A stretch of 64,000 nucleotides of DNA from an uncultured bacterium (GTDB lineage: Bacteria; Krumholzibacteriota; Krumholzibacteriia; Krumholzibacteriales; Krumholzibacteriaceae): the NCBI GenBank assembly GCA_963813815.1, contig CAWFAD010000008.1:96001-160000 (forward strand). The letters are read 5' to 3'. Shown here piece by piece: positions 42,216-60,373 of this stretch (within the stretch, counting starts at the first letter, position 1; each line of letters begins with the position of its first letter). Below the pieces are notes generated by a model. That model worked only from the letters and a program-made list of their open reading frames with translations. It did no database searches and was not told the DNA's origin. A program made the position numbers and the translations under genes.

Positions 42216-42398
42216 GCGTATATCCTCCGGTTCGGGGCGGTTTCCGCGTCACGAGACGGAGATGCATTGTAGCCGAAACCTTCCCCGTCCGCAATGCGCG
42301 GCGGGCGCGAGATTCCTCAATTGTTTCACGCGCCGAAATGAGGTATAATAGAATTATTATTTGTTATCGGACGGCCCTGTCGAAGGAGATTGCATCGC

Positions 42399-45300
42399 AT
42401 GAGACCATCGATTTTCACGAGGATCGCGGCCATCGCGTTCATCCTGTCGGGGGTCGCTCTCGCCTCCGCCCCGCTCCTCGCCGAGGAGAGCGCGGAGCAG
42501 CGCATCGAGCGCATCAACAAGGAGAACGCCGAGAAGGGGTACCACTGGACGGCGGGCATCACTTCGATGTCGCGGCTCACCCCCGAGGAGAAAAGGCTTC
42601 GTCTCGGATTCATCCCTCCGACCGAGGATCTCATTTCGACGACCTCGACGATCACCGAGCCGGCCGCCGTCCTCTTCGACGCGGTCTTCGACTGGAGGCC
42701 TCTCGGCGGGGTCACCGCCGTGAAGGACCAGGGATCGTGCGGCTCGTGCTGGGCCTTCGCCGGCATCGGGCAGGTCGAGTCCCACATGCGGATTTTCGAC
42801 CAACGGATCGAGGATCTCTCGGAGCAGGCGATCATCGACTGCAATCCCTACGATCAGAGCTGCGACGGCGGCAACGCGATCGGCGTGTACGTGACGGTGA
42901 GGGACTCCGGGGCCGTTCTCGAGACCTGCGTTCCGTACCAGGCGCGCGACGACCTGCCGTGCACGGAAAGCCTGTGCGAGGTCATGGCGCGCATCGCCAC
43001 GTACTCGTCCGTTTCGAACAACATCAATGCGATCAAGACGGCGCTCGCGACGGGGCCGGTCTACACGAGCATGACCGTCATCGACAACTTTTTCGATTAC
43101 TCGGGCGGTTGCTACAACTCGACGACGACCGAGTCGACGAACCACGCGGTGCTCATCGTGGGCTGGGACGACACGGCGTGCTACGGCTCGGGCGCCTGGA
43201 TCTGCAAGAACAGCTGGGGCGAGGATTGGGGCGAGGACGGGTTCTTTCACATACAGTACGGCGTCTGCAACATCGGCTCGTGGAGCTATCAGATCAGCTA
43301 CATTCCGAGCGTCGTCTTCGTCAGAGTCGATTCGCCGGACGGCGGCGAGGTCTGGAACGTCGGCGAGCATCGTCTCATCACGTGGACGTTGGCGCGGCAG
43401 ACGCCCGACTCGATCAGCGTCTACCTTAGCCTCAACGGAGGCGACAGCTACGATTACACGATCGCGAGCGGCATGGAAAACGTCACCACGTACGACTGGA
43501 TCGTTCCCGAGCTTCCGGTGACGACGGCGCGGATCAAGGTCGTCGCGTACTACGGTGGAGAGATCGGCGGATGGGACGCGAGCGACACCGACTTCGAGAT
43601 CAAGGGCAAGCCGTATCGCTACGTGTCGACGACGGGCGGCAACGTCTATCCGTACAGCACCGCCGCATGGGCGGCCCGGGCGATACAGGACGCGGTCGAC
43701 GCGGCGGTTCCGGGCGATTCCATTCTCGTCGCGGCGGGGATCTACACCCGGCCCATCATGGTCGACAGGGCCGCGTACCTCTTCGGCGGCTGGAACGCCG
43801 ATTTCACCGCGCGCGATCCCGAGGCGTACCCGACCTGGATAAAATCCTCGGGGAGCAACGTGTCCTTCGTGGGCGTGGCCTCGGGCACGTGCGGCGTCGA
43901 GGGGTTCCGTCTCAAGGGCGGAGTCGGCACCTATGCCCTGCTGCCGACGGGCGCGGCCTACGGCGGCGCGATCTTCAGCTATCTCGCCTCTCCGGTGATT
44001 CGGTGGAACGTGATCGACTCGTGCGGAGTGGCGAGCGTGCTCAACTACAGCGCCGGGGGCGGCATCGCCTGCTACGGCGGCACGCCGGTCATCGAGGACA
44101 ACGTCATCACGAGGTGCATGGCCCAGAGCGGCGGGGGCATTTATCTCTACGAGACGAGCGCCGCGATCCGCCGCAACACGATCTCTGGGTGCGCGCCGAA
44201 CGTCGAGTTCAACGGCACGAAAAACGGCGGCGGCGTCCACGCGTACCACGCGACGATGACGCTCGAGGGGAACACGATCACCGATAACGACGGATACCGG
44301 AAGGGGGGCGGGATCTACGGATACTTGAGCCCCTGCGAGATGTCGGGCGACACGATCGCGCTGAACGACAGCAAGGACGCGGGCGGCGGCGTGTTCGCCG
44401 AGCGGTCGGCCCTCTCGATCTCGGGCGCCCTGATCCGCGCCAACACTTCGCTCTCGATGGGAGGCGGCGTCTACCACCGGGCCGGCGCCCTCAACGTCTC
44501 GAACTCGATCATCGCGCAGAACCGCTCCTCGATCATCGGGGGCGGCGTCTACGCCGACAGCTCCTACGGCTCGTTCTCGAACAACGTCGCCGACCGCAAC
44601 GCCGGGCTCTACGGCGGCGGCAACGTCTTCTTCGGCAATCTGCCCTCGATGGCGGTCGAGAACAACTGCGTCACGTACGGGTCGGTGAACGGCGTGCAGG
44701 TCATCTCGGCGGCGAACATCGCGTTCCGCTACAACGATTGCTTCGGCAACACGCCGGCCAACGTCGTGACGCTCGTTCCCGACGCGACGAACGCGAGCTT
44801 CGATCCCCTCTACGCCGACACCGCCGCGGGCGACTATCGCCTCCTCGTGCACTCGCCCGCCATCGACGCCGCCGATCCGGCCGATCTCGATCCGGACGGC
44901 TCGCGGGCGGATATCGGCGCCTTCGGCGGCCCAGGCGCCGTCATGGCGGCTCCCGAGTACGTCCGCAACCTCGCCGCCGCCCCGTACAACGCCTCGACCA
45001 TCAGGCTCACCTGGGACGCCGCCGCGGGCGGCGCGAGCTGGTACGCCGTTTACGGAAGCGACGCATCGGGCCTCGTCCCCTCGCTCGCCTCGTTCATCGC
45101 GAGCGTCCCGGCTCCGGCGACCACCTTCGACCACACGCCGGTCTCGGGCTGCCGCTACTATCGCGTCTCCGCGGTGAGCGCGGACGGATACGGCGGCGGC
45201 TACGCCGCCGAGGCGGGCGCCTGCGCGGCGGACGTCGATCTCATCGCGCCGACCGTGAGCGTGACGTATCCCAACGGCGGCGAGGTGCTCGAATCGGGCG

Positions 45301-45860
45301 ATACGATCGCGATCGACTGGGAGGCGAGCGACAACCGCTGGGTCGACTCTGTGAGCGTCTACTTCTCGCACGACGCCGGAGCCACTTTCGAGCTCGTCGC
45401 CGGCGGGCACGCTCCCGACCTGCCGTGCTCCTGGGTCGTTCCGCCGCTGCTCTCCGACTCGTGCCTCGTCCGGGTCGTCGCCTACGATCCGGGGCTCCTC
45501 GAAGGGACCGACTCGAGCGACTCGCTCTTCGCCATCCGCAACTACACCGGCGTCGACGGGGACGATCCCGAGACGCCGCGCTGGACGACCTCGCTCGAGC
45601 AGAACTTCCCGAACCCCTTCAACGGCACGACCACCATCGCCTATTCGGTCGGGGAGCGCTCGGATATCGAGCTCGGGATCTTCGATCCGGCCGGGCGGTC
45701 CGTCCGCGTCCTCGTCCGAGCGGCGCGCGAGCCGGGACGCTATCACGCGGTCTGGGACGGCAGGGACGACGCAGGCCGGGACGTCGCCTCGGGCGTCTAC
45801 TTCTGCCGCATCAAGACCGGAAGCTACAGCCAGACCCGAAAGGTCGTCTACGTGCGCTGA
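42399..45860 (+). CDS. Secreted C1A (papain-family) cysteine protease with beta-helix, FN3-like and C-terminal sorting domains
   Basis: DQGSCGSCWAF, NHAVLIVGW, KNSWG. GGGI repeats of a right-handed beta-helix. LEQNFPNPFN...WDGRD..GVYF..RKVVYVR. Confidence 0.9.
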   Translation: MRPSIFTRIAAIAFILSGVALASAPLLAEESAEQRIERINKENAEKGYHWTAGITSMSRLTPEEKRLRLGFIPPTEDLISTTSTITEPAAVLFDAVFDWRPLGGVTAVKDQGSCGSCWAFAGIGQVESHMRIFDQRIEDLSEQAIIDCNPYDQSCDGGNAIGVYVTVRDSGAVLETCVPYQARDDLPCTESLCEVMARIATYSSVSNNINAIKTALATGPVYTSMTVIDNFFDYSGGCYNSTTTESTNHAVLIVGWDDTACYGSGAWICKNSWGEDWGEDGFFHIQYGVCNIGSWSYQISYIPSVVFVRVDSPDGGEVWNVGEHRLITWTLARQTPDSISVYLSLNGGDSYDYTIASGMENVTTYDWIVPELPVTTARIKVVAYYGGEIGGWDASDTDFEIKGKPYRYVSTTGGNVYPYSTAAWAARAIQDAVDAAVPGDSILVAAGIYTRPIMVDRAAYLFGGWNADFTARDPEAYPTWIKSSGSNVSFVGVASGTCGVEGFRLKGGVGTYALLPTGAAYGGAIFSYLASPVIRWNVIDSCGVASVLNYSAGGGIACYGGTPVIEDNVITRCMAQSGGGIYLYETSAAIRRNTISGCAPNVEFNGTKNGGGVHAYHATMTLEGNTITDNDGYRKGGGIYGYLSPCEMSGDTIALNDSKDAGGGVFAERSALSISGALIRANTSLSMGGGVYHRAGALNVSNSIIAQNRSSIIGGGVYADSSYGSFSNNVADRNAGLYGGGNVFFGNLPSMAVENNCVTYGSVNGVQVISAANIAFRYNDCFGNTPANVVTLVPDATNASFDPLYADTAAGDYRLLVHSPAIDAADPADLDPDGSRADIGAFGGPGAVMAAPEYVRNLAAAPYNASTIRLTWDAAAGGASWYAVYGSDASGLVPSLASFIASVPAPATTFDHTPVSGCRYYRVSAVSADGYGGGYAAEAGACAADVDLIAPTVSVTYPNGGEVLESGDTIAIDWEASDNRWVDSVSVYFSHDAGATFELVAGGHAPDLPCSWVVPPLLSDSCLVRVVAYDPGLLEGTDSSDSLFAIRNYTGVDGDDPETPRWTTSLEQNFPNPFNGTTTIAYSVGERSDIELGIFDPAGRSVRVLVRAAREPGRYHAVWDGRDDAGRDVASGVYFCRIKTGSYSQTRKVVYVR

Positions 45861-47087: not shown

Positions 47088-50000
47088 TCAGCGCACGCGC
47101 ACGCGATAGACGATGCTCCCGGAAGCGCCGCTCTCGAGCGGATAGGGCGCCTGGCGCGAGAGAAGGACGCTGAGCGTCCCTCCCGCGGCGTCGAACATCG
47201 CCTCGTCCGGGTCGAGGGGATCGGCCGTGAGGTACACGGGCACGCCGTCGCGCAGCCACTCCACGTCGAATCCCGGGCCGAAGGCGTCGAGCACGAGCTC
47301 GACCGCCGGCGGTAGGAGATCGATGATTTCGATCTCTTGCACCGCCTCGACGCCCGGGTTCGCGAACGTGATCGTGTACGTCAATACGTCCCCGGGCCGC
47401 GCCTCGGCGAGATCGACGGATTTGGCGAGGGAGAGTAGCCCGCTCGAGCTCGCGAGCACGAGCACCCGGTCCATGGCCGACGCCTCCGCCGTGATCGCCG
47501 TGCCGGCGAGCGTCTGGGAGAGCGTCACCGTGATCGCGCCGATCGTTCCGGCCGGAGCTTGCGGCGGAACGAACACGCGCATGACGATCGGAACGACGTC
47601 CTTCCCCGGAACGTCCGGATCGAGCGCCAGATCGGCCGCCGTGATGAGCGAATCGCCCGGACCGCACGCTCCGTCGCCGTCGTTGTCCCGATAGAAGGCC
47701 GCGACCCATCCCGGCGGCAGCGTCGCGGAGAGGGTCGCCTGTCCCGCCGTGCCCGCGACAACGAGATGCGGCGCGTCGACGAATCCGCCGGCGACGCAGG
47801 TGAGATCGTTCGACGGCGTGATCGCGGGGCCGCGGACGTCCGCGAAATCGACGCGCAGCGTCTCCCCCGCCGCGGCGGCCGCGATCATGACCGTATCGGG
47901 CGAGAGCGATATCATCCCCGCCGGCGTGAGCTCGACGAGCGTGCGCGGCGTTCCGGAGGCGGCCTCGAAGGAATACGACCCGTCGCCGCCGGTGAGCTGC
48001 GCGAGGGTTCCGTCCGGGCCGGCGAGCGTGACGGAAACGCCCGTCCATCCTTCCTCGCACGCGTCCCGCACGCCGTCGTGATCCCGGTCGTCGAACGCGA
48101 CGCCGGCCACGAAAGCGCCCGTGCCGATCTCGAGCGTGACGCTGTCCTCGAGGTCGCGCGAGAGCGCGATGCCGTCGATGATGATCGGCGTGCGGAGCGC
48201 GGCGAACGCCGGAATGTACACCTTGACGGTGAAGATCCGGACGTCTCCGGGAACGATGACGCCGACGTCGTACGGCGACGAGTGATCCCCCGAGCCGTCG
48301 GAAATGACGACCGATCCGGCCGGCCAGCCCGCCGGGGCGGACCAGGACACCCGGAACGAGTCGGGATATCCGCCGCGATTCCAGAGCTCGAGCGTCGCGG
48401 TCGCCATCGCGCCCGGATCGCCGAAGACGAGCGCCAGGCCGCCGTCGCCCGAGCCGGGCGGCGCCGACACGAAAGCGCCGTCACCCTCGATCACGAGATC
48501 GGCGCGCGGCGGCATGCTCACCTGAACGCGGGCGCATACGCTTTCGCCGTTCGTGGAATCGAGCGTCGACACGGCGTCGATGATATAGTCGTAGTCGCCG
48601 GCGAGGGCCGAGAGCGGCACGCTGACGGTGAAGGCGAGGAGCAGCGCGTCGCCCGGCGCCACGGAGGCCGTCGTGTAGGGCGAAGCCGAGCCTTCGAGCC
48701 TCGCCGTCATGCCCGGGACGGCGTTCCAGGAAACGCGGTAGCTCTCCGCTTCGGCGCCCTCGTTCTGGAGCTCCACGGTAAAGGCGATCGTCCTTCCGGC
48801 GACCGTGCTCTGGAGCGACGAGCCTCCCGCGCCGGTCCCCGGATCGCCGAATATCCCGTCTCCGTACCCGTCGATGAGCCCGTCGACGACGCGCGGCGGC
48901 GTCACGCGGACGCGGCCGAGCACGCTGTCGACGAAATAGCGCTTGTTCGTTTTGCATCCGTCGATGACGACGTCGAACGTGCCGCCCGCGCAATCGGCGG
49001 GAACCGACACGGTCATCGTGTAGGCGCCGGCGGGAACGCGGCGCATCGTGGAGGTCGAATCGCCGATGCGGACGTCCCACCCCGGCGGAGTGTTCCACCA
49101 GACGTCGAAGAGATTCTCGCCCGACTCGTTCTGGATCGTGACGGCGAAGGTGACGGTGCTTCCCGGAGTCGCCGTCTTGACCGACGAGCCGCCGAGGCCG
49201 GTGCCGGGCGAGGCGTACGCGTTGTCGCCGTTCCCGTCGATGAGAATATCGATCTCGTTCCCCGTCGCGACCGAAATCGACGCCTTGACGCTCTCGCGCA
49301 CCGTGCCCGACACCGAGGACAAGAAGTTGAATATCGAGGTAAACGTGTCGTAGGCCCCGTTCAGGGGAATCCCCACGGCGAGGACGCAGGGGCGCTCGCT
49401 CCGCGGCGCCATGGTCGGCGTCCTCCACGGAAGCGCGTACGTCGTTCCGTTGTCGATGATGGAGACCGTCCAGCCGCTTGCCGGCGGGACCCAGGACACG
49501 GTGAAGGAGTCGGCGACCCCGCCCTCGTTCTGGATAACGATCGGGAAATACACGGTCGTTCCGCGCGTGCCCGCGACGGAAACGCTCCCGCCGAGCCCCG
49601 CCCCGGTCGGATCGATGATGCCGTCCCCGCTCCCGCAGATGACGACGTCCACCTTCGGGGCGAGCACGCGCGTCACGGCCCTCACCGCGTCCTTCTTCAA
49701 GGTGTCGGTGAGGGAGGTCGCGCGGACGAGGCTCGTATAGTCGCCTCCGAGGAGCGACGCGGGCACGTACACGCGATAGGAATACGACTCCGAGCCGCCC
49801 GACGGAACGAGCCCCGAGCTGAAGGCGCCCGTCCGGACGATCGCTCCGTCGAGAACGTCAGCCGTGAGCGGCGAGGGCGTGGCCCAGTCGACCCGGAACG
49901 AATCGGCGTTCGCCCCTTCGTTATAGAGCGCGATCGTATAGGCCACCATGGCGTTCGGCGCCGTCTCGCGATACGATATCCCGCCTCCGCCCGAGGGATC

Positions 50001-51050
50001 GATCACGCCGTACCCGTTCGCGTCGATGACGAGATCGGCGAGGTAGTCCGCGGGAACGACGTTCGTCGCGAGGCGCACGCTGTCGTAGCGGTTCGCGTAG
50101 ACGGTCGAGACGGCGTCGACGATGGTCGAGTAGCCGCCGACCGCGGCGCCGGGCGGCACGATCGCGACGACCTCGGCGCTGATCGTGGAGCCCGCCGGGA
50201 CGGCGGGCGTGGTCCACGGAAACGCGTACGTCGCGCCTCCGTACCGGACCGACACGCTCCAGCCGGCGGGGGGCGTCGCGCTGAGGCGATAGGTGTCCGC
50301 GGCCGGCCCCTCGTTCTCGACGTCGAGGAAATACGCTATCGTATCGCCCGCCTCGCCGCTCCGGACCGAGTACCCGCCGCTCCCCGTCCCCGCGGCGCCG
50401 AAGAGATCGTCGCCGTCGCCGTCGACCGCGAGATCGACCCATCGGCGATAGACGAGCGACACGTTGTCGACATAGGACCACGTTTCGTAGGAGTTGTTGA
50501 CGCTGTTCTCCTGAAGAAAGTACAGCCGCACGGTCTGCCCCGCGTAGGCGCTCATATCGTATCCCACGGGCGCCGCGGCGTTGTCGTCGAGCCAGCCCGA
50601 ATCCTTGAAGAGGTTGTTCGCCTCCGAGAAGGAGTAGCTGATGACCGTGGCGAGCACGGCGTTCGCCGTGTTGCGGATCTGCATTCGGAACGGATCGCGG
50701 TTCGAGCCGTCGTACCCCTGCTGGCGGAACGCGAAATAGAGAGTCGCCTGCGAGAAGTTCGTCGGAATCGCGACGTCCTGATAGATGTATCCATAATAGT
50801 TGGCGCGGGGCTGCGCGTACTTGAAGCCGATGAGGGCCGAGTAATCGCCGCTGCGCGGCAGATCGAGCACGACGATATGATCGGCGAAGCTCTGATCGGT
50901 GGAGCCCCCTACGATGCTCCCCGCGCCGTGCACCCACCCGCCCGAGAAGCTGCCCGTCTCGAATCCCCCGTTTTGCACGAGCTCTCCCGCGTTCGCGCGC
51001 GTCGCCGCGATCGCGGCGAGAAGATATATGCCGGCGACAAACCGTCTCAT
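47088..51050 (-). CDS. Large secreted repeat protein: CBM-like N-terminus, six Ig-like repeats, SdrD-B-like domain, C-terminal DUF11-like domain (putative tip adhesin)
   Basis: Signal peptide, ELVQNGGFETG, repeated D..IDG.G...G.G.GG, F.D.D.DG..D..E.G..GV.V.L, and LAKSVD...PGDVLTYTITFAN...IIDLLP...YRVRVR-stop. ATGA overlap with the upstream gene. Confidence 0.8.
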   Translation of the reverse strand: MRRFVAGIYLLAAIAATRANAGELVQNGGFETGSFSGGWVHGAGSIVGGSTDQSFADHIVVLDLPRSGDYSALIGFKYAQPRANYYGYIYQDVAIPTNFSQATLYFAFRQQGYDGSNRDPFRMQIRNTANAVLATVISYSFSEANNLFKDSGWLDDNAAAPVGYDMSAYAGQTVRLYFLQENSVNNSYETWSYVDNVSLVYRRWVDLAVDGDGDDLFGAAGTGSGGYSVRSGEAGDTIAYFLDVENEGPAADTYRLSATPPAGWSVSVRYGGATYAFPWTTPAVPAGSTISAEVVAIVPPGAAVGGYSTIVDAVSTVYANRYDSVRLATNVVPADYLADLVIDANGYGVIDPSGGGGISYRETAPNAMVAYTIALYNEGANADSFRVDWATPSPLTADVLDGAIVRTGAFSSGLVPSGGSESYSYRVYVPASLLGGDYTSLVRATSLTDTLKKDAVRAVTRVLAPKVDVVICGSGDGIIDPTGAGLGGSVSVAGTRGTTVYFPIVIQNEGGVADSFTVSWVPPASGWTVSIIDNGTTYALPWRTPTMAPRSERPCVLAVGIPLNGAYDTFTSIFNFLSSVSGTVRESVKASISVATGNEIDILIDGNGDNAYASPGTGLGGSSVKTATPGSTVTFAVTIQNESGENLFDVWWNTPPGWDVRIGDSTSTMRRVPAGAYTMTVSVPADCAGGTFDVVIDGCKTNKRYFVDSVLGRVRVTPPRVVDGLIDGYGDGIFGDPGTGAGGSSLQSTVAGRTIAFTVELQNEGAEAESYRVSWNAVPGMTARLEGSASPYTTASVAPGDALLLAFTVSVPLSALAGDYDYIIDAVSTLDSTNGESVCARVQVSMPPRADLVIEGDGAFVSAPPGSGDGGLALVFGDPGAMATATLELWNRGGYPDSFRVSWSAPAGWPAGSVVISDGSGDHSSPYDVGVIVPGDVRIFTVKVYIPAFAALRTPIIIDGIALSRDLEDSVTLEIGTGAFVAGVAFDDRDHDGVRDACEEGWTGVSVTLAGPDGTLAQLTGGDGSYSFEAASGTPRTLVELTPAGMISLSPDTVMIAAAAAGETLRVDFADVRGPAITPSNDLTCVAGGFVDAPHLVVAGTAGQATLSATLPPGWVAAFYRDNDGDGACGPGDSLITAADLALDPDVPGKDVVPIVMRVFVPPQAPAGTIGAITVTLSQTLAGTAITAEASAMDRVLVLASSSGLLSLAKSVDLAEARPGDVLTYTITFANPGVEAVQEIEIIDLLPPAVELVLDAFGPGFDVEWLRDGVPVYLTADPLDPDEAMFDAAGGTLSVLLSRQAPYPLESGASGSIVYRVRVR

Positions 51051-54000
51051 GGCCGCTCGTTCACCCCCGCCCCGTGAAAGTAGCTCAGGATTTTCTCGTT
51101 GAACTTGAGCCGCATGCCGACGTGAAATCCCCGGCGCGAGTAACAGTTATCGGCCGTGTCCGTGTCCTCGCGCCCTCCGAAATCGTATCCGGCGCCGACC
51201 CACACGTTCCCGGCGACGACCCGTCCGGCCTCCACGCCGCCGCCGTAGCTCGTCGTATGAGTCTCGAGCTGGCTCACGACGCGAGCCGCGAGGCTCACGT
51301 CCCACCGTCCGCCGAACGTCCGTATGACCTGCGTCTGATACAGCACGGCCGACGCGGCGGCGGAGTATTCGCGGAAGGTGTTCTCGACGCGGCGCCCCGC
51401 GATCTTTCCCTCGATCTCCCAGTCGGCCGCCGGCCGCCAGTTCGCCTCGAGGGAGGCGAGGTTCTCGCGATCGATCCCCTCGGGATGCGCGGGGCTTCGC
51501 TCCTCGTAGCTCGAGCGGAGGAGCGAGAGAACCGTGAGCGCGTCGCCGCCGCCCGGCCTGACGGAGACGCCGAGCAGGCCTCCTCCCTTGACGTGATCGG
51601 CCTCGCGCTTCTCGTCGGAGAACCAGAGGTCTCCCCGGAGCAGCACGGCCAAGCGCTCGCCGATGCGCCGGAGCCCGGCGAGCTCGGCGAGATGCTTGCG
51701 GCGATCGGGCTCGAGGCGGAGCTCGTAGCTTCCCTTGAGCCGGTAGTCCCCGGCCGCGGGCGTGTAGGCCGCGTTCGTCGACCAGGAGAAATGATCGTCG
51801 ACCGCCTCGCCGCTCACCGTGGCGACCTTCTCGATCGCGACGACCGCCGAGAGCTCGTCGGAGAGCGCGAGGCGCTCCTTGACGCCGAATATCGCCTGCG
51901 CGCGCTCGCCGCTCATCGCCCCCTCGAGCTGGTACCGCGTGTACGCCTGGAGACGCTCCGATACGTTCGACTCGAGACCGAGCTGCGTGAGATGCCTCGT
52001 GCCGGTATGGCTTCCCGTCCGGTACTCGTGCTTGAGCACGGCCGAGACGCGGCGCCAGAGCCGCTGCGAGAGCTTCGCCTGTATGCGGTTCGGATACTCC
52101 TCGACTTCCTCGCCGTCGAGAATCTGGTCCCACTCGATCGCTCCGGCCGTCCGCTCTCCGCCGAGGCCGAGGCCCGTGCGCAGGAGGACGCTCCGGGCGT
52201 TTCCGTCGCGAGCGTCGTTCCGGGCGGCGGCGGCGAAACCCACCGTGCAATCGAGGCGCCCGGCCGTGTACCGCGCGGTGAGATCGCCGTAGCTCTTTTC
52301 CTCGTCCCGCTCCCGGAGCTCGTGCCGGAAGCCCCGCGCGCCGAGCGCGAGCGTCGGCGCGACCCGCCAACTCGCTTCCGCGCCGAGCTTGCGGCTCCCG
52401 AGCTCCGTCTTGCCGCCCGTGAAGGACGGATTGAAGAACGAGTCGTCGACGTCGCGGTAGTAGGCGCTCCACCGGAGGACGCGATCGCGTTCTCCCGCGA
52501 AGCGAATCCGGAAGGCGCTGCCGCCGCCGAGGACGAACTTGTCGCTGCGCGCGAGCTCGCTCTCGATCCGGACCCCGTCGGCGAGCCGGCCCGCGAGATC
52601 GACGCCGAAGAGCGTCGAATTTTCCACGCCCTCCTCCTCGAGCACCGCGGTCACACCGAAGGCGAGGCTGTCGGCGACCTCGAGCGAGCTGCGGACGCCG
52701 TAGATGAAATTGCGCTCCCCCGCGTCGCGGCATTCGTAGCTCACGACGATGGTCACGGGATCGAGGTTCTCGTCGAACCGGGGAATGGGCTCCTTGAAGA
52801 GAATGCTGCCGTCCTCGTAGTTGATGTCGTAGTCGCGGTTCACCTGCTGGTAATCCACGCGCAGGATCCGCTCGGAGAGGTAGCGGTCGCGAACCTCGAT
52901 GCGCACCTTTTCGCTCCCCTCGACGAGCGGGTAATGCTCGAGAAAATAGAATCCACTCGTTCCCTCGCCGGCGAGCTCTTCCTGATAGGTCGCCTGATCG
53001 GTGTTCGTGACGAACGCCCGGATCGAGCCCTGCGGCAGTCGCGCCTCTCCCGAGAGGCCGTTCATGGAGCGGTGGTATTTCGTGAACTCGGTGCTCGCGA
53101 ACTCCGTCCGAAAATCGCCGAGCATCGCCGAGTACCGGCGGTGATCGAGGCGCGCGAACACGCCGCTGCGGGAGGCGGTGTTGAACCGCAGCTCGCTCGC
53201 GTCGCCGTAGACCGGGTAGTACTTCTCCGGCTCGATGCGGCGGAAGAGCATGTCGTCCCGCACGGGCCGCGTGTTGATCGCCGCGGTGAGAACGTGTCCG
53301 GCGCGCACCTCGCCCTGCCCGTAGAGGGCGACCATCCCCTCGGCGTAGCCCCCGTCCGGATTGCGTTCGAGGGAGCGGTGCGCTCCGCCCGCCCCGCCGA
53401 GCGAGGAGTAGCCGAGCGCCCCCTCGCCGTACCCCATGAGGAACCAGCTTCTCTGCGGGCTCTCGTAGTCCACGCGGCAGGCGGCGGATGCCGTTCCGAG
53501 CGCGACGCGCACGAGCTCGCGCCGCGAGTCGCGCAGCGGGGGGAGCCTGAGCGTCACGCGCCCGCCGGCGGTCGCGGCCTGCACGCCGGCCTGCTGCGGA
53601 TTGACGTCGAGCGAGTCGACGAGATCGGCGGGGCCGGTCACCGCCACAAAAACGCCGTCCCGGACCGGGAGCCCGTTGCGGTCGCTCACGAGGAACACCG
53701 CCTCGGGACGAGAGACGCCGTCCGCCGGCGCCGATACGGTCTCGCGCTCGGCGACGATCGCGTGCGGCCGCCCCGCGAGATACACGTGCCGCACGCAGGT
53801 GCTCCGCCTGCCGCCGTACTCGCGGCACACCACGAGAATGTCGTTCCGGCCCTCCTCGATCTTGACCCCGTAGAAAACGGTGCCGAAGACGCCGGCGGCG
53901 ATGTCGATCTTCTTGAGCCCGATGCGGTCCCGTCCGATCGGAAGGCCGTTCACGTAGAGCTCGACGTCCGAGCCGAGCGGCGAGACGACGTCGACGTCGA

Positions 54001-56827
54001 TCTCTCCGCGGGAGTAGAATACCGCTCCCTCGGCGGGCCGGACGATATCGGCGCACAGGCCCGACGAGTCCGAAAGGGCGTACGTGCTCGTATCGGCGCG
54101 GGCGAGCTCTCCGGCGAGCCCCGGATCGCCGGCCGCCGAGCCGGCTGGGGGCACGACGCGGATCTCGACGCGCCGGTTCATCGCGCGCCCCGCCTCGGTG
54201 GCGTTCGTGGCGACCGGTTCGCGATCGCCTCTCCCCGTGTAGTCCATGCGATCCTCGGGAATGCCGTTCATTCTCAGCACCTGAAACACCGAGCGCGCGC
54301 GGGCGAGCGAGAGCTCGAGGTTCGAGGGGAACCGCGCGCTCGCGATCGGTATGCTGTCCGTGTGTCCCTCGACGAACACCGTCCAGCCCTCGTGCTCGCG
54401 GATCCAGAGCGAGAGGGCGGCGATTCGCGAAAGGGGAACGCCCTCGATCAGGGCCTCCCCCGCGCTGAAATGCGTGCCGGGAATCGTGATGGCGTCGAAG
54501 TCCGGCGTCCGCTGCGACGTGGCCGCGGCTCCCGCGGCGGCCGCCGGGATCGTCTCCGGGGCGTTTTCGGAAGGCCGCGCCGGCGGAGGACCGGCGAGCG
54601 CCGAGTCGGCGGCGGCTCCGGCGGCCGCTCCGCCCGCCGCCCGAACCACCGCGAAATCGACCCGCCGGTGGCCGCTCGGCGCGAGGTCGATGAGCGCTTC
54701 GCCCTTCTCCCCGTAGCCGAAATGGCCCGCGTCCCCGGCCGCGAGCGAGTCGGCGAGGGAGGAGGGATCGAGGCGCACGGCGTGCCGCCCCTCGACGACG
54801 CCCGGGATCGAGTAACGTCCGGCCGCGTCCGTCACGGCGTAGGTGCCGTCTTCGATGAACACGGACGCCCCCGGGACGCCCCGCTCCCCCTCGTCCCACG
54901 CGCCGTCCCGGTCGTCGTCGGCGAAAACGGCCCCCGAGATGACGCCGCGCCGCGTGAAGATTCCCTCGACGATGAGCACCGAGGCGCGCGCGGGGCCGTC
55001 GCTCGCGCGCTCGCCGGCGCTCGTCACGCAGTGCGCCCACGCGCTTCCCGTGAGCCTTCCCGTCTCCTGCCCCGAACCCACGCGGGCGCGGAAAACGATT
55101 TCCCGCTTCTCCCCCGGCGCGAGCGAGCCGAGGCTCCACGAGAGGGCGCCGCCGTCGATCGCGGGCGCCATGCTGCCGGTCGCGTACTCGAGACCGGCGC
55201 ACAGACGCTCGACGACCTCGACGCTGTCGAGCGTCGTTTCGTCCGCGACGTTCTCGACCGTCACGATGAAGCTGACGACGTCGCCGACCATGGCGACCGG
55301 CTCGCGGATCGACTGCGAGACGGAAACGAGAGGAATGAACGACTTGAGCAGAACGTCCTCGACCCGGTCGCTCGAGCCCGCGACCGAGAGGGAGGCGGCC
55401 TCGAGATCGAAAACGAGCTCCCTCCCGTCGAAGAGCCGGAATCCCTCCGGAGTCGATTCGAGCCGCAGCCCGACGACGACGGAGGCGCCGCGCGGAACGA
55501 CGCCGGCGAAGGCCCGATACCGCGAGAGGCTCTCGAGCGGCGCGCCGGTCGAATCGACGAACGCGATCCCCCATTCGGGGGGAATCGCCGCCGAATCGGC
55601 CACGGCCACCGAGATGCTGTCGTCGAAATTGCCGCCGTTCAGAATCTCGTGCCAGAGAACGTAGGAGCCGTCGGTGCCGTTGAGCGCCGCGACCACGCGG
55701 TCGGCGGGGGTTTCCGCCGGCGCGTCGGGGTCGCCGCGCGGGCCGATGGCGACGAGGCTCACGCGGCCCACGAGTACGAGGACCTCGTTCGAGACGGCCT
55801 CGCGGTCGGCGCCGGCACCGTCGAGATACGCGCACGACGCCCGGTCGAGAATCCATCCCTCGGGGTGATCGTCCCGCACCCGCGTCCGGTACGAGAAGGC
55901 GCCCGACTCTCCCGCCGAAAGGCTGTCGAGAAGGAGGCGCACGCCCTTCACGCGCTCGGCCGGAGGCTCCGTGGAGGTCCAGACGGATGCCGCCGCGTCG
56001 AAAAATTCGATCCGCCCGCCGAGGGACGAAGCGGCGGATCCCGCGGCGAACTCCGCGCCCGTCAGCACGCCGCCGTCGTCGATTCGCGACTCCAGCGCGA
56101 CGAGCGTCGCGGCCCGCTCTCCCGAATTCTCGAAGTCGATCGCGAAGCCGATCGTATCGCCCGGCAGCGCCGCCGCGGCGTCCGCCGAGAGCGAAAGGGC
56201 GACCGAGGCTTCCGCCCGCGCCGTGACGCGCACGACGTTGCCGCGATCGTACAATGATGTGTCCTCCGACGATCGCGCGACGAGATCGATGTGCGCCGTC
56301 TCTCCTCCGGCGAGGCCCGGCGGCAGAACCGCCTCGAGCAGCAGGAAAACCGATTCGCCCGGATCGAGCGGTCCCACGCTCGTGACCTCGGGCTCTCCCG
56401 CGTCGAGTGCCCCGTCTCCGTCGGCGTCGATGTACACGGCCGTCCGCGCCGGGACGAAGCTCGACGGTGCGGGATACGCGATCGCGAGCGCGAAGGCGTC
56501 CTCGACGTTCCCCGCGTTTTCCAGCCGGAACGGGAAGCGCACCGTCTCCCCAGTGAAGGCGAGCGCCGTCGCCGCGGGACTCGAAACGGTTCCGTCGGGG
56601 GTCAAGAGGGGGCCGTAAGCGGCGAGAACGCTCACGAAAACGGTGTTCGAAAAGATCGAGAGCCGCGCTCCATCGCGGTCGTAAACCGCCTCCGACCGGC
56701 TCGAGATGACCTGTCCGGCCGGCGGAGCTTGGCCGCGGACGAGCGAAGGAAACAGGGCGAGCCCCGCAACCACAAGCAAGAAAAGGGCTTGCCCCCTTCT
56801 CGATCGTATGGCCAACGGTCCGCTCAC
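51047..56827 (-). CDS. Very large outer-membrane protein: DUF11/Ig domains, SdrD-B-like domain, OmpA-like peptidoglycan-binding domain, C-terminal beta-barrel
   Basis: GHTDS...NLELSLARA..V...G.G...P.A.N...GRAMNRRVEI. The C-terminal ~800 aa are amphipathic strands ending FHVGMRLKF plus a short tail. GGAGG RBS before GTG at 56827. Confidence 0.85.
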   Translation of the reverse strand: MSGPLAIRSRRGQALFLLVVAGLALFPSLVRGQAPPAGQVISSRSEAVYDRDGARLSIFSNTVFVSVLAAYGPLLTPDGTVSSPAATALAFTGETVRFPFRLENAGNVEDAFALAIAYPAPSSFVPARTAVYIDADGDGALDAGEPEVTSVGPLDPGESVFLLLEAVLPPGLAGGETAHIDLVARSSEDTSLYDRGNVVRVTARAEASVALSLSADAAAALPGDTIGFAIDFENSGERAATLVALESRIDDGGVLTGAEFAAGSAASSLGGRIEFFDAAASVWTSTEPPAERVKGVRLLLDSLSAGESGAFSYRTRVRDDHPEGWILDRASCAYLDGAGADREAVSNEVLVLVGRVSLVAIGPRGDPDAPAETPADRVVAALNGTDGSYVLWHEILNGGNFDDSISVAVADSAAIPPEWGIAFVDSTGAPLESLSRYRAFAGVVPRGASVVVGLRLESTPEGFRLFDGRELVFDLEAASLSVAGSSDRVEDVLLKSFIPLVSVSQSIREPVAMVGDVVSFIVTVENVADETTLDSVEVVERLCAGLEYATGSMAPAIDGGALSWSLGSLAPGEKREIVFRARVGSGQETGRLTGSAWAHCVTSAGERASDGPARASVLIVEGIFTRRGVISGAVFADDDRDGAWDEGERGVPGASVFIEDGTYAVTDAAGRYSIPGVVEGRHAVRLDPSSLADSLAAGDAGHFGYGEKGEALIDLAPSGHRRVDFAVVRAAGGAAAGAAADSALAGPPPARPSENAPETIPAAAAGAAATSQRTPDFDAITIPGTHFSAGEALIEGVPLSRIAALSLWIREHEGWTVFVEGHTDSIPIASARFPSNLELSLARARSVFQVLRMNGIPEDRMDYTGRGDREPVATNATEAGRAMNRRVEIRVVPPAGSAAGDPGLAGELARADTSTYALSDSSGLCADIVRPAEGAVFYSRGEIDVDVVSPLGSDVELYVNGLPIGRDRIGLKKIDIAAGVFGTVFYGVKIEEGRNDILVVCREYGGRRSTCVRHVYLAGRPHAIVAERETVSAPADGVSRPEAVFLVSDRNGLPVRDGVFVAVTGPADLVDSLDVNPQQAGVQAATAGGRVTLRLPPLRDSRRELVRVALGTASAACRVDYESPQRSWFLMGYGEGALGYSSLGGAGGAHRSLERNPDGGYAEGMVALYGQGEVRAGHVLTAAINTRPVRDDMLFRRIEPEKYYPVYGDASELRFNTASRSGVFARLDHRRYSAMLGDFRTEFASTEFTKYHRSMNGLSGEARLPQGSIRAFVTNTDQATYQEELAGEGTSGFYFLEHYPLVEGSEKVRIEVRDRYLSERILRVDYQQVNRDYDINYEDGSILFKEPIPRFDENLDPVTIVVSYECRDAGERNFIYGVRSSLEVADSLAFGVTAVLEEEGVENSTLFGVDLAGRLADGVRIESELARSDKFVLGGGSAFRIRFAGERDRVLRWSAYYRDVDDSFFNPSFTGGKTELGSRKLGAEASWRVAPTLALGARGFRHELRERDEEKSYGDLTARYTAGRLDCTVGFAAAARNDARDGNARSVLLRTGLGLGGERTAGAIEWDQILDGEEVEEYPNRIQAKLSQRLWRRVSAVLKHEYRTGSHTGTRHLTQLGLESNVSERLQAYTRYQLEGAMSGERAQAIFGVKERLALSDELSAVVAIEKVATVSGEAVDDHFSWSTNAAYTPAAGDYRLKGSYELRLEPDRRKHLAELAGLRRIGERLAVLLRGDLWFSDEKREADHVKGGGLLGVSVRPGGGDALTVLSLLRSSYEERSPAHPEGIDRENLASLEANWRPAADWEIEGKIAGRRVENTFREYSAAASAVLYQTQVIRTFGGRWDVSLAARVVSQLETHTTSYGGGVEAGRVVAGNVWVGAGYDFGGREDTDTADNCYSRRGFHVGMRLKFNEKILSYFHGAGVNERP

Positions 56828-56972
56828 ACTGTTTCCTCCAGAAACGAAACGAGAGGTTGGCCCTTTCTCGGAAGCCAACCTCCAGTTCGGCGTTTTCACG
56901 CCCGATACGCTGGATGGTGCCGACTCATCGCTGCTCGCTTCTCGCTATCCTACCGCCCGTTTCTTGAAAGTC

Positions 56973-57002
56973 GTTGCGGGGCGCCTTTCGGCGCCCCGCA
57001 AC
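56973..57002 (-). terminator. Intra-operon hairpin (partial terminator or mRNA stabiliser)
   Basis: Perfect 13-bp stem GTTGCGGGGCGCC/GGCGCCCCGCAAC with a GAAA loop on the minus strand, 12 nt after the stop of the DUF11 shaft candidate. Confidence 0.7.
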
Positions 57003-57014
57003 TCGCCGCGCCGA

Positions 57015-59711
57015 TTATTCCGCTATGATGCGAACGATAAAGGCCGCGCCGTCGGCCGTGCCCGCGCCGCCGGCGAGGGATCCCGCGAGCACCCAGCGAA
57101 CGTTCGTCACGCTCGCGTCGAAGCCCGCCGGAGCGCCGCCGCCGCCGCTCACGGGTGTGTAGGCCCACGTGGCGCCACCGTCATCCGAGAACTCGATCGT
57201 GATGCCCGTGATGCCCGGGGCGAGCGTTCCCGTGACGGCCGAGCCGACCCGGTACTGCGTCCACGCCGGGATCGCGTCATAGATTTCGATCGCCGCGAGA
57301 TCGGCGGTGCCCACGTTCGAGTAGTCGGTCCGGTAGGTGAGCTCCGTTCCCGGAAGCTGCGAACCCGACGGATTGACGGATTTCACGAGAACGAGATTGC
57401 CGGCGACGATCGTCGTGACGTCCGTCGCCGTGTCGGTCGCGCCGGTCGCCTGGCCCGTCGCGCTGATCGTCCCCGTCTCGACCGTGCCGAGCGGCACGCC
57501 CGACGGAATCGAGAGCTGGACGATGACGTTCGTCGAAGCGCCCGGGGCGAGCGTGACGGCCGCGATCGGGTTGTTCGCGAGATCGAAGTACGCGTACGAC
57601 CAGCCGTTCGAGCTCACCGCCGCGAACAGGAACGTGTCGCCGACGTTGCCGGTGTTCGTCACGGCGTGCTGGTAGCGCACCGTTCCGCCGCTCGTGCCGG
57701 TGCCGGCGCGATCGGGGTCGATGGTGACGGAGGCCGCCTGCAGAATCGTGACGGTGTCGGCGATCTCGTCGAAGACGGAGCCGTTATTGGCCGAGGTCGC
57801 CCGGAAGGTCACGGGATTGACGCCGGGAACGGCGCCGAGCGGCACGGCGACGCGCGCTATGACGTTCACCTCGTTGCCGCCCGCGATGGGGCCCACGCCC
57901 GTGATCGGGGTGAGCTCCGGCAGGTCGAGAAGGCCGTTGGCGTTCACGTCGAAATAGTACGTGGCGACCCAGCCCGCGGGAACGGAAGCGGAGAGGTTGA
58001 AGTTGTCGGTCGAGCCGCCCGTGTTGATCACGTCGAGCGCGAAGTCGACGTTCACGCCCGGATTGGCGTTCTGGTTGACCGCGACGTTGTTCGTGCCGGG
58101 AACGCCGTCGTAGTTGCCGATGTCGACCGAGGCCGGCGCGACGAGCGCGATCCGGTCGGTCGTGATGTTCGACTCGGCGGGATCGTTCGCCGAGACGGCC
58201 TGGATGACGGCGTCATACGGACCGCCGGCGCCGGCCGTGCCCGGGATGATGATCCGCACGATGAAATCGCGCGTGTCGCCGGGGTTGAGCGTTCCCACGT
58301 CGGGAATGCCGTCCGTGCCCGTGTCGCCGAGCGGCGTGACGCCGTCGCTGCGGAAGAAGAGCACGCTCCAGCCGGCGGGGATCGTCGAAGCGCCGTCGAG
58401 GACGATGTTGATCTCGTCGGCCGCGTTGCCGTCGTTCCGCACGGTGTTCGTGAAGGAGACGGTCGAGTTGGCGTACGCGAGCGGAATCGACTGCACGTCG
58501 TCGGCGTAGTTCGGCGGCGTGCCGGCGGCCGGCTGGCCGACGGGACCGACGAGCACGTCGGCGAGAACGTTCACGTTGATCTGCGTGTTGTTCGTCGGAA
58601 CGATCGTCGGATCGGGAGAACCGGGGTTGTTGTCCGTGAACGCGACGGCGCCGCTGTTGTTGATGATGCCGGCGCGCATCGTGACCGGAACGACGAGATC
58701 GTAGCCGAAGCTGTAGTTCTGTCCGACCGGGAGCGCGCCGTTCGTGAGATACGCCACGGCGATATCCCCGGCGCCCGCGATCGCGGACCATGCCCACGTC
58801 TCGGGCGAACCCGCCATCGGGCTTCCGGCGGGCAGGTACAACACCGATCCGCCCGCGGGGGCTCCGGCGGGGGCGCCGGAGAGCGCGAGCGGAAGACCCG
58901 TCGTCGGGTCGGTCGGCAGGGCGTCGTACATGAGGACGCCCGTGAGGCCGACGGAGGGAACGGTGACGCCGTTCGCGGGCTGGGTGCCCACGTTGGCGCC
59001 CGTGATCGTGTAGGTGATGACGTTGCCCGGATCGACGTTCGCGGGCACGCCCGACATCACGGCGGTGAGCACGGCGTCGCTCACGACGTCCGTCAGATGG
59101 TAGTTCCGTGTGTCGATGCGGGTCGGATCGCCCGCGGAGGCGCCCTCAACGCCGACGTAGGCGACCTCGCCGACGAGCGAGCCGGGAGGCACCTGATAGG
59201 TGACGAGGATGCCGACCGTCGTTCCCGCGGCGATCGGTCCGAGGTTGCCCGGAACGCCGCCCGAGGAAATCGCCGGTTCGCCGCCGTCGAGAACGCCGTT
59301 GCCGTTCGCGTCATAGTAGATCGTGATGTCGCCGAGCCCGAGCGTCATCGTCGTGTTGGCGGCGTCGAGCAGCGGCTCGATCGAGTATATGTCGGCGTCG
59401 TTGCCGGTGTTCGTGAGGCTGTAGCTGTAGTAAACGGTCTGCCCCGGTATGGCGGTCTGCGTCAGAGCCGGCGTCACGGGCGGGGTCTCGCCCGAATCGT
59501 CCGGAAGGATCGACAGCCCGTACACGGGGAGCACGATCGTCGTGACCTCGTTCGAGGTCGCGGTGTACGTGTTGCCCGAGAGGTCCTGGAACCTCGCCGA
59601 GGCTTGGTTCCGGATCGTCGTGCCGGCGGGGGTCTGCGCCTGCGCCGCCGAAACGACGCAGAGCACGACCGCCAGCATGGCGACGCCGGAGAATAGACGC
59701 GCCTTGAACAT
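57015..59711 (-). CDS. Secreted multi-Ig/DUF11 repeat protein (putative major fibre subunit)
   Basis: Signal peptide ending AQA, then TPAGTTIRNQA. Repeats N.GN..D. C-terminal LVKSV..PGTELTY..YSNVG..IYDAIP. Thr/Asn/Gly-rich. AAGGAG RBS. Confidence 0.85.
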   Translation of the reverse strand: MFKARLFSGVAMLAVVLCVVSAAQAQTPAGTTIRNQASARFQDLSGNTYTATSNEVTTIVLPVYGLSILPDDSGETPPVTPALTQTAIPGQTVYYSYSLTNTGNDADIYSIEPLLDAANTTMTLGLGDITIYYDANGNGVLDGGEPAISSGGVPGNLGPIAAGTTVGILVTYQVPPGSLVGEVAYVGVEGASAGDPTRIDTRNYHLTDVVSDAVLTAVMSGVPANVDPGNVITYTITGANVGTQPANGVTVPSVGLTGVLMYDALPTDPTTGLPLALSGAPAGAPAGGSVLYLPAGSPMAGSPETWAWSAIAGAGDIAVAYLTNGALPVGQNYSFGYDLVVPVTMRAGIINNSGAVAFTDNNPGSPDPTIVPTNNTQINVNVLADVLVGPVGQPAAGTPPNYADDVQSIPLAYANSTVSFTNTVRNDGNAADEINIVLDGASTIPAGWSVLFFRSDGVTPLGDTGTDGIPDVGTLNPGDTRDFIVRIIIPGTAGAGGPYDAVIQAVSANDPAESNITTDRIALVAPASVDIGNYDGVPGTNNVAVNQNANPGVNVDFALDVINTGGSTDNFNLSASVPAGWVATYYFDVNANGLLDLPELTPITGVGPIAGGNEVNVIARVAVPLGAVPGVNPVTFRATSANNGSVFDEIADTVTILQAASVTIDPDRAGTGTSGGTVRYQHAVTNTGNVGDTFLFAAVSSNGWSYAYFDLANNPIAAVTLAPGASTNVIVQLSIPSGVPLGTVETGTISATGQATGATDTATDVTTIVAGNLVLVKSVNPSGSQLPGTELTYRTDYSNVGTADLAAIEIYDAIPAWTQYRVGSAVTGTLAPGITGITIEFSDDGGATWAYTPVSGGGGAPAGFDASVTNVRWVLAGSLAGGAGTADGAAFIVRIIAE

Positions 59712-59767: not shown

Positions 59768-60259
59768 TTACTTCACCTGCACGCGATAGGAGACCGAAAC
59801 TTCCTTGCCGACCTCGAGAACGCTCGAGATGTCCCACATGATGTGCGTATACATATCGGGTGTCGCGACGCGCGGCTCCTCGATGCCCCGTTCGTTTACG
59901 ACGTTGTAGCGAACGGGAGCTTCGTGGAACGACTTGCCGCCGTCGATGCTGTAGCTGGTCTTCGCGGCGCCGCTCTCGGTCGCGGTCTTCTCCAGGTACT
60001 CGGTCCCCGCGGGGATCGGCCCCACGAGGCTCACCCCGGAGGCCGGAGCGTCGCCGACGTTGCGGTAGCGCAGCGTGTACTCGAGACGGTCGCTCGGAAA
60101 GACCTTCTCCGCGGAAACCGCGGTCTCGCGGTTTTCCGCGTCAACGACGATCTTCCGGGCTTCCATCGTGCCGGCGAGGGTCGGCCCCTTGCCGTACGCT
60201 GATGCGGAGAGCGATGCGACGATGAGGAAAATGGTCGCAACGACGAAACTCGCTCTCAT
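59768..60259 (-). CDS. Small exported single DUF11-like domain protein
   Basis: Signal peptide. PSDRLEYTLRYRNVG, PIPAGTEY, YSIDGG, THIMW, VSYRVQVK-stop. Confidence 0.8.
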   Translation of the reverse strand: MRASFVVATIFLIVASLSASAYGKGPTLAGTMEARKIVVDAENRETAVSAEKVFPSDRLEYTLRYRNVGDAPASGVSLVGPIPAGTEYLEKTATESGAAKTSYSIDGGKSFHEAPVRYNVVNERGIEEPRVATPDMYTHIMWDISSVLEVGKEVSVSYRVQVK

Positions 60260-60373
60260 TCCCTCTCCCTCCTTTTTGCGCTCCTCCCGGGGAGGAGCCG
60301 GTGAAACGAACCATAGCCGCCCCCTGCTCGATGAGCGGGACGGCGCTCGCAAATTTTCCCATCCGAGACAAAG

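Follow-up and report, generated by a model that had tools for sequence, protein, structure and literature searches.

One CLIPPER domain of the shaft protein, a candidate major subunit of 898 aa (57015..59711, minus strand, counted from the ATG at 59711), lies in two parts, one at each end of the chain; these parts are complementary, and the Lys, Asp and Asn divided between them are conserved. Positions are those of the window, the whole 64,000-nucleotide stretch of DNA that was analysed. The shaft gene is part of a four-gene minus-strand cluster with a small protein (59768-60352), a giant protein (51047-56899) and a tip candidate (47088-51050). Complementation between subunits by the N-terminal hairpin is very probable, and covalent locking of the shaft subunits, for which a bond between Lys777 and Asn35 is predicted, is probable; we infer that the partner of the hairpin is another molecule. 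A preliminary description had proposed an isopeptide triad with its Lys and Asp in the C-terminal domain and its Asn in the N-terminal peptide. Profiles, folds, a two-chain model and conservation support this core reading: the triad is of the CnaA type (CLIPPER), is shared by the C-terminal domain and the N-terminal hairpin, and is most simply joined between subunits.

The divided CLIPPER domain of the shaft

From its N-terminus, the shaft comprised a Sec signal peptide, a donor beta-hairpin, five complete Ig-like domains (one of them CLIPPER) and a C-terminal acceptor. The signal peptide (residues 1-25; 59637..59711, minus) was recognised by eye from its hydrophobic core and Ala-x-Ala motif, and AlphaFold2 modelled the region as a helix at 7-17 with low pLDDT; mean pLDDT of the single-chain shaft model was 92.1. 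The hairpin (residues 26-62; 59526..59636, minus) corresponded to the final strand pair of a CLIPPER domain according to hhalign and the two-chain interface, and the acceptor (residues 769-898; 57018..57407, minus) to a CLIPPER_2/DUF7507 fold lacking those two strands, according to Pfam, hhalign and comparison with PDB entry 9IFR. Codon reading and conservation identified Lys777 (AAA; 57381..57383, minus) as the predicted isopeptide Lys and Asp812 (GAC; 57276..57278, minus) as the predicted catalytic acid, both in the acceptor, and the predicted isopeptide Asn was Asn35 (AAC; 59607..59609, minus), which aligned with Asn352 of the internal CLIPPER domain. These three codons, and those of the tip Lys (47421-47423) and tip Asp (47319-47321), lay on the minus strand exactly where the preliminary description had placed them. 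Asn35 lies 742 residues upstream of Lys777, and the acceptor reaches the stop codon before any Asn strand. Lys777 was the sole Lys of the 873-residue mature chain, Lys3 being in the signal peptide. A sortase-type LPxTG signal and membrane anchor were absent from shaft and tip, both of which end on a beta-strand at the stop codon without a hydrophobic tail.

CLIPPER is DUF11 (PF01345) and CLIPPER_2 is the renamed DUF7507 (PF24346) (PMC12617251). The acceptor matched Pfam DUF7507 at 40.2 bits, against a cut-off of 27. With profiles built from 105 aligned shaft proteins, hhalign matched the C-terminal profile to the shaft's own internal domain at 213-343 (P 99.1) and the hairpin to the same domain at 348-381 (P 93.7, E 1.9e-7), acceptor and hairpin thus tiling one complete domain with no overlap. 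The remaining four shaft domains matched less well (best P 74.9 with the C-terminal profile and 3.2 with the hairpin). Residues were paired as Lys777 with Met219, Asp812 with Asp263 and Asn35 with Asn352; the absence of the Lys from the internal domain (VLTAVMS), remarked on earlier, is therefore real, with Met219 (59055-59057, minus) in its place and Asp263 and Asn352 kept.

Structural comparison agreed with this tiling. In 9IFR, a CLIPPER structure, a Lys715-Asn806 bond is seen crystallographically with Asp748 nearby, and the bond is missing from some DUF11 domains (PMC12617251). The internal domain (residues 212-382; 58566..59078, minus) matched the whole of 9IFR (Z 11.7, rmsd 2.3, 122/123 residues, chain 18-140), and the acceptor alone matched chain 18-111 only (Z 8.1, rmsd 2.3, 93 aligned), with a Lys-to-Asp spacing of 35 residues versus 33 in 9IFR. 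If entry residue 140 is residue 828 (the construct being 708-828), Asn806 would be entry residue 118, in the part absent from the acceptor, and Asn35 would be its equivalent. The three residues did not lie in one contiguous domain, and the intramolecular arrangement of CLIPPER was accordingly not found here. Among 48,161 structures, 9IFR tied for first as fold match of the acceptor with two others within 1 Z unit; a hypothetical protein of T. thermophilus, TTHA1873 (PDB 7WRK), also resembled the modelled acceptor, with Z 8.0. When the mature shaft, the acceptor, the tip end and the small protein were each compared by sequence with solved structures, no relevant match came back. Foldseek returned generic Ig arrays for the whole shaft model and no match at E <= 0.001 for the acceptor, for which 9IFR ranked 7, and an atlas search gave DUF11 clusters only. 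Against solved structures, the shaft profile matched AbpX alone (E 1e-4), and this for a middle domain: the third shaft domain (58134-58565, minus) has a profile likeness to this archaeal bundling protein. By eye, several shaft domains have Asp/Asn/Gly-rich loops resembling calcium sites. Asn54, conserved in 79/83 distant homologues and touching residue 777 in the model, was considered as the bonding Asn and rejected, as it is Asn35 that aligns with the Asn of a complete Lys-Asp-Asn triad and, by the presumed numbering, with 9IFR Asn806.

Insertion of the hairpin into the acceptor cleft was modelled with two chains, the acceptor (766-898) and a partner (27-212), using our own alignment and three controls. 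The model scored 0.87 (best control 0.31); the mark for such models was reached by 116/157 solved complexes and 2/215 mismatched pairs, counts that apply only roughly to an alignment of our own. The two parts of a known fold, once split, may reach the mark through resemblance to solved CnaA/CLIPPER structures, and separate chains do not distinguish cis from trans. Runs shared at least 93% of contacts, with partner pLDDT of at least 90. On the partner side the interface consisted of the hairpin (27-63) plus residue 104, and residues 777, 812 and 35 were all included. Strand 35-41 paired with 808-813 and strand 53-61 with 775-786, and residue 775 contacted 37, a register that would place Lys777 near Asn35; the pair itself was absent from the 25 lowest-error pairs of the model, which reports contacts and not side-chain geometry. 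The invariant Tyr793 lay within the modelled interface and might, as a guess, be an aromatic cap.

Conservation of the junction and internal triads

Conservation of the triad was found in both close and distant relatives. In the close set (the best 120 of 601 matches, 62-100% identity, query included), Lys777 and Asp812 were each present in 120/120 and Asn35 in 119/120, the remaining one being a gap; as 27% of positions in this set show conservation of 98% or more and invariant Asn residues are common, invariance of an Asn is not diagnostic by itself. A distant set was drawn from 150 representatives, of which 99 were 750-1250 aa long and 83 were kept after 16 fragments or other architectures were removed by eye. 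Asn, Lys and Asp or Glu were present in 79/99, and after the removal the full junction triad was found in 74/83 and missing in 9/83. By position, Lys777 was kept in 76/83, Asn35 in 79/83, and residue 812 was Asp in 74 and Glu in 7 of 83. Median Lys content of the distant homologues was 1.7%, and the alignment columns richest in Lys were 777 and 219; because Lys occupies position 777 in 76/83 proteins of such low Lys content, its retention exceeds chance.

The preliminary description had also held that the Lys is retained only where subunits would join. This is so in the present clade, with an internal Lys in just 13/120 close homologues, but not family-wide, since 61/83 distant homologues have a complete internal Lys-Asp-Asn triad. 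A weaker form holds, the junction triad being kept more often than the internal one (74/83 versus 61/83). The internal Asp was retained in 64/64 distant homologues with the internal Lys and in 2/19 without it (kin are not independent in these counts), and 13 of those 19 still had the full junction triad. This dependence of the Asp on the Lys indicates that the triad behaves as a unit. Where the bond is dropped, Lys is replaced by Met, Leu or Ile. On a FastTree tree the internal Lys changed about 10 times and the junction Lys 6 times. Two sister homologues had neither triad and were nearly without Lys. A specific co-loss of Lys777 and Asn35 was not supported, as its p of 0.034 compared with 0.036 for the control pair Lys219/Asn35 and it rests on the two sister sequences.

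Partner proteins and proposed assembly

When the 2.5-Mb genome was searched with hairpin, acceptor and internal-domain profiles, matches were confined to the four cluster genes. The tip candidate ended in an acceptor (47091-47444, minus) that matched the acceptor profile at E 1.6e-14 and had both Lys and Asp, and profile search found no donor hairpin at its N-terminus. In the giant, Pfam/NCBIfam matches and profiles gave an N-terminal donor hairpin (at about 56624-56731, minus), Ig/DUF11 domains, an SdrD-B domain, an OmpA domain and a long C-terminal region that may be a barrel, and profile search found no terminal acceptor. A Ser (56699-56701) stood at the Asn position of the giant hairpin. 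Of 43 giant proteins, the 25 from close relatives of this genome, counting the one in the window, all had Ser at this position, and 16 of the other 18 had Asn (8 rows resolved by eye); the anchor joint is presumably non-covalent in this clade. The covalent chain envisaged in the preliminary description needs qualifying: with Ser for Asn in the giant donor of this clade, covalent bonding cannot extend to every joint. The small protein is secreted and acceptor-only (hhalign P 99.7 to the acceptor), with Gly (60020-60022, minus) in place of the catalytic Asp, which was kept in 4/34 loci; its Lys position is ambiguous, being skipped by local alignments and aligned by a global one, and our claim is limited to the loss of Asp. 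Judged from its sequence, it is a candidate non-covalent holder of the hairpin, a decoy or chaperone.

Among related loci, the terminal acceptors had Lys and Asp in 31/31 shafts and Lys with Asp or Glu in 16/16 tips (Lys 16/16, Asp or Glu 16/16). In eleven relatives of 329-376 aa, hairpin and acceptor were separated by one Ig domain; the Lys (by eye) and the Asp were present in all eleven, and the donor residue was Asn in seven and Ser in four. A second form of the cluster occurs in the same phylum (L050-L053, L055), in which two 329-376-aa subunits flank the small gene, four of the five loci having one Ser donor and one Asn donor. An Opitutaceae genome (L056:503-15340) encodes a 4946-aa protein with a terminal acceptor, a very long tip candidate, and in loci L005, L009, L021 and L042 the giant, tip or shaft lies in two frames, which may be due to sequencing errors. 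Elsewhere in the window, a gene at 42390-45860 (minus) encodes a secreted 1156-aa protein that, by eye, begins with a papain-type cysteine peptidase region and ends in a sorting-like domain, and that has beta-helix-like repeats.

Directly 3' of the shaft stop codon was a 13-bp RNA stem-loop (56973..57002, minus; z -3.04). Hairpins of -24 kcal/mol or stronger followed 22/27 shaft genes, 0/23 small genes and 4/19 giant genes; a scan for consensus terminators did not pick up the stem-loop after the shaft gene. Hairpins after a gene whose subunit is made in excess are a feature of major pilin genes. The distribution suggests that the stem-loop is a candidate signal for an excess of shaft over giant and tip, and it may set the subunit ratio.

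In the assembly that we propose, a surface fibre is built from repeated shaft subunits. Once a subunit has been exported and its signal peptide removed, its N-terminal hairpin would slot into the incomplete C-terminal CLIPPER domain of the following subunit and finish that fold, burying the acceptor Lys777 beside the donor Asn35 and Asp812; a Lys-Asn isopeptide bond would then form spontaneously, releasing ammonia, as happens in intact CLIPPER. The chain would begin with the acceptor-only tip, the donor-only giant would end and anchor it, and the fibre would presumably reach the surface through the giant.

Head-to-tail complementation could also occur without a covalent bond, the Lys, Asp and Asn being kept for packing or as relics. 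Strand exchange alone suffices in chaperone-usher pili (PMC13721041), Ser donors occur in the giants of this clade (25/25) and in 4/11 short subunits, two sister homologues have lost the whole triad, and oligomers of the N35A mutant of BsaA, a TasA-family protein of Clostridium perfringens, resist SDS unless heated (bioRxiv 10.1101/2024.11.04.621531). Packing, however, hardly explains a buried Lys in 76/83 proteins at 1.7% Lys or the dependence of the internal Asp on Lys, and the substitution of Lys by Met, Leu or Ile where the bond is dropped argues the same way; we consider a purely non-covalent joint unlikely. Alternatively, the hairpin might close the C-terminal domain of its own chain, giving a cyclised monomer with an intramolecular bond across a discontinuous domain, as in RrgA/GBS104. 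GBS104-like_Ig, tabulated with a discontinuous intramolecular triad of Lys188, Asp597 and Asn692 (PMC12617251), is a precedent, and the single-chain model was confident at both hairpin and acceptor with pLDDT <50 at 769-771, just ahead of the acceptor; this pattern may reflect self-closure, yet the weak stretch itself speaks against it. Intermolecular joining is favoured because an acceptor-only tip and a donor-only giant require partners in trans and because two-domain subunits exist: between hairpin and acceptor lie one (in the 329-376-aa proteins) to five rigid domains with short linkers, a range that a ring of fixed geometry would presumably not tolerate. Self-closure is accordingly very unlikely.

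The joints might be real and the product a short fixed complex of tip, shaft and giant, a periplasmic or envelope strut rather than a long fibre. The OmpA peptidoglycan-binding domain of the giant would suit a strut, as would the absence of any separate usher or chaperone family from the listed matches; the shaft, however, has both donor and acceptor and can therefore self-extend, and the stem-loop after 22/27 shaft genes suggests that shaft is made in excess, which leaves a strut slightly more improbable even than self-closure. Beyond the fibre itself, we tentatively suggest, with somewhat less than even confidence, that the cluster represents an undescribed and widespread class of pilus in outer-membrane bacteria, with multi-domain subunits, split-CLIPPER hairpin complementation and a sortase-free covalent lock. 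Its joints would be programmed: the Asp-less decoy chaperone would hold the hairpin unreacted, Ser donors would leave chosen joints (here the anchor) reversible, and the fibre could be shed from the giant OmpA-bearing barrel, which would serve as secretion channel and terminator.

Known systems and distribution

The shaft shares with CLIPPER and CLIPPER_2 the CnaA-like beta-sandwich fold and the positions of Lys (first strand), Asp and Asn (late strand). Their bond is described as intramolecular, within one domain, the main text of PMC12617251 not containing the term "donor", whereas here the triad is split over the two ends of the protein; the covalent Lys-Asn bond in a hydrophobic core with an aromatic cap that characterises them is here predicted only. 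BsaA resembles the assembly proposed here in its mechanism: donor strands are exchanged, and an Asn-Lys bond between subunits then forms by self-catalysis, the acid lying in the receiving subunit and the triad N35-K74-E56 having been tested with Ala mutants (bioRxiv 10.1101/2024.11.04.621531). Its layout, Asn on the N-terminal donor with Lys and acid on the acceptor, was found here too. Features of its own are a TasA-type fold, a single donor strand (28-38), a Glu catalyst, SipW processing, a Gram-positive host and no giant outer-membrane partner (bioRxiv 10.1101/2024.11.04.621531). No TasA or SipW family appeared among the listed matches of the four proteins or the 50 listed fold matches of the acceptor, whose best match was CLIPPER.

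In chaperone-usher pili (type 1, P), as proposed here, an N-terminal extension completes the Ig fold of a neighbour, the tip adhesin lacks the extension and the gene cluster includes a large outer-membrane candidate, but their joints are non-covalent, with a single donor strand and single-domain pilins (PMC13721041); the donor here has two strands. Neither a PapC/FimD usher nor a PapD/FimC chaperone was among the Pfam matches of the four proteins or the 25 of 40 NCBIfam matches listed for the giant. The archaeal thread of Saci_0406 likewise combines donor strand complementation with a proposed intermolecular isopeptide bond, but from Asn57 to the N-terminal amine of subunit n+2 and not between Lys and Asn with a catalytic Asp (PMC9715654). 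A-ENA fibres are auto-crosslinked helical hairpins (PMC13111695). TLP-1 fibrils (PMC11494351), Pam pili (PMC13278184) and tafi (PMC11821415) were considered as prior descriptions of the cluster and, as far as these sources describe them, are different systems.

The likeness to SpyTag/SpyCatcher drawn in the preliminary description stands in that a split Ig-like domain would be resealed by an isopeptide bond; the donor, however, spans about 36 residues and corresponds to two strands, a hairpin, of a CnaA fold and not to a single strand of a CnaB fold. SpyTag/SpyCatcher was engineered from a CnaB domain and joins Lys to Asp through one strand with loss of water, whereas the proposed system would be natural, CnaA-type and two-stranded, joining Lys to Asn with loss of ammonia. 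Exchange-then-lock Asn-Lys chemistry is known from BsaA; neither split-CLIPPER assembly nor the cluster was found in the literature searched, outside which most subscription papers lay, and a search under old-style Thermus locus tags guessed from gene order, a weak test, was blank. If correct, our reading would provide outer-membrane bacteria with a sortase-free covalent fibre, built from a domain so far described as intramolecular only, as well as natural CnaA-type tag/catcher pairs, a thermophile version included. Split triads of this kind are invisible to single-chain surveys of isopeptide bonds.

The closest named relatives were labelled Krumholzibacteriota or Latescibacterota, and matches at E 1e-20 or better were obtained in 96 of the 201 genomes sampled from the phylum, in some via partial or paralogous genes only; the phylum of the Polaromonas locus gave 3/301 genomes at E 1e-40. 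A metagenome scan with one distant homologue gave 82 pattern matches, none confirmed, and no RNA holder was listed. The system was also present in Deinococcota, Pseudomonadota, Verrucomicrobiota and Marinimicrobia records. Two records titled Micrarchaeota and Patescibacteria (L004, L014) carried the cluster, with a shaft 76% identical to the present one, and are possibly mis-binned contigs. Relatives occurred on plasmids of Thermus, Deinococcus, Pacificitalea and Sinorhizobium (13 records). Plasmid pTT27 of Thermus thermophilus HB8, a cultured and tractable host, carries a testable copy of the cluster (TTH_RS10905-10925; L040:11433-25789), in which Asn, Lys and Asp are intact across the shaft, the tip end and the giant donor, and the giant is split into two annotated genes.
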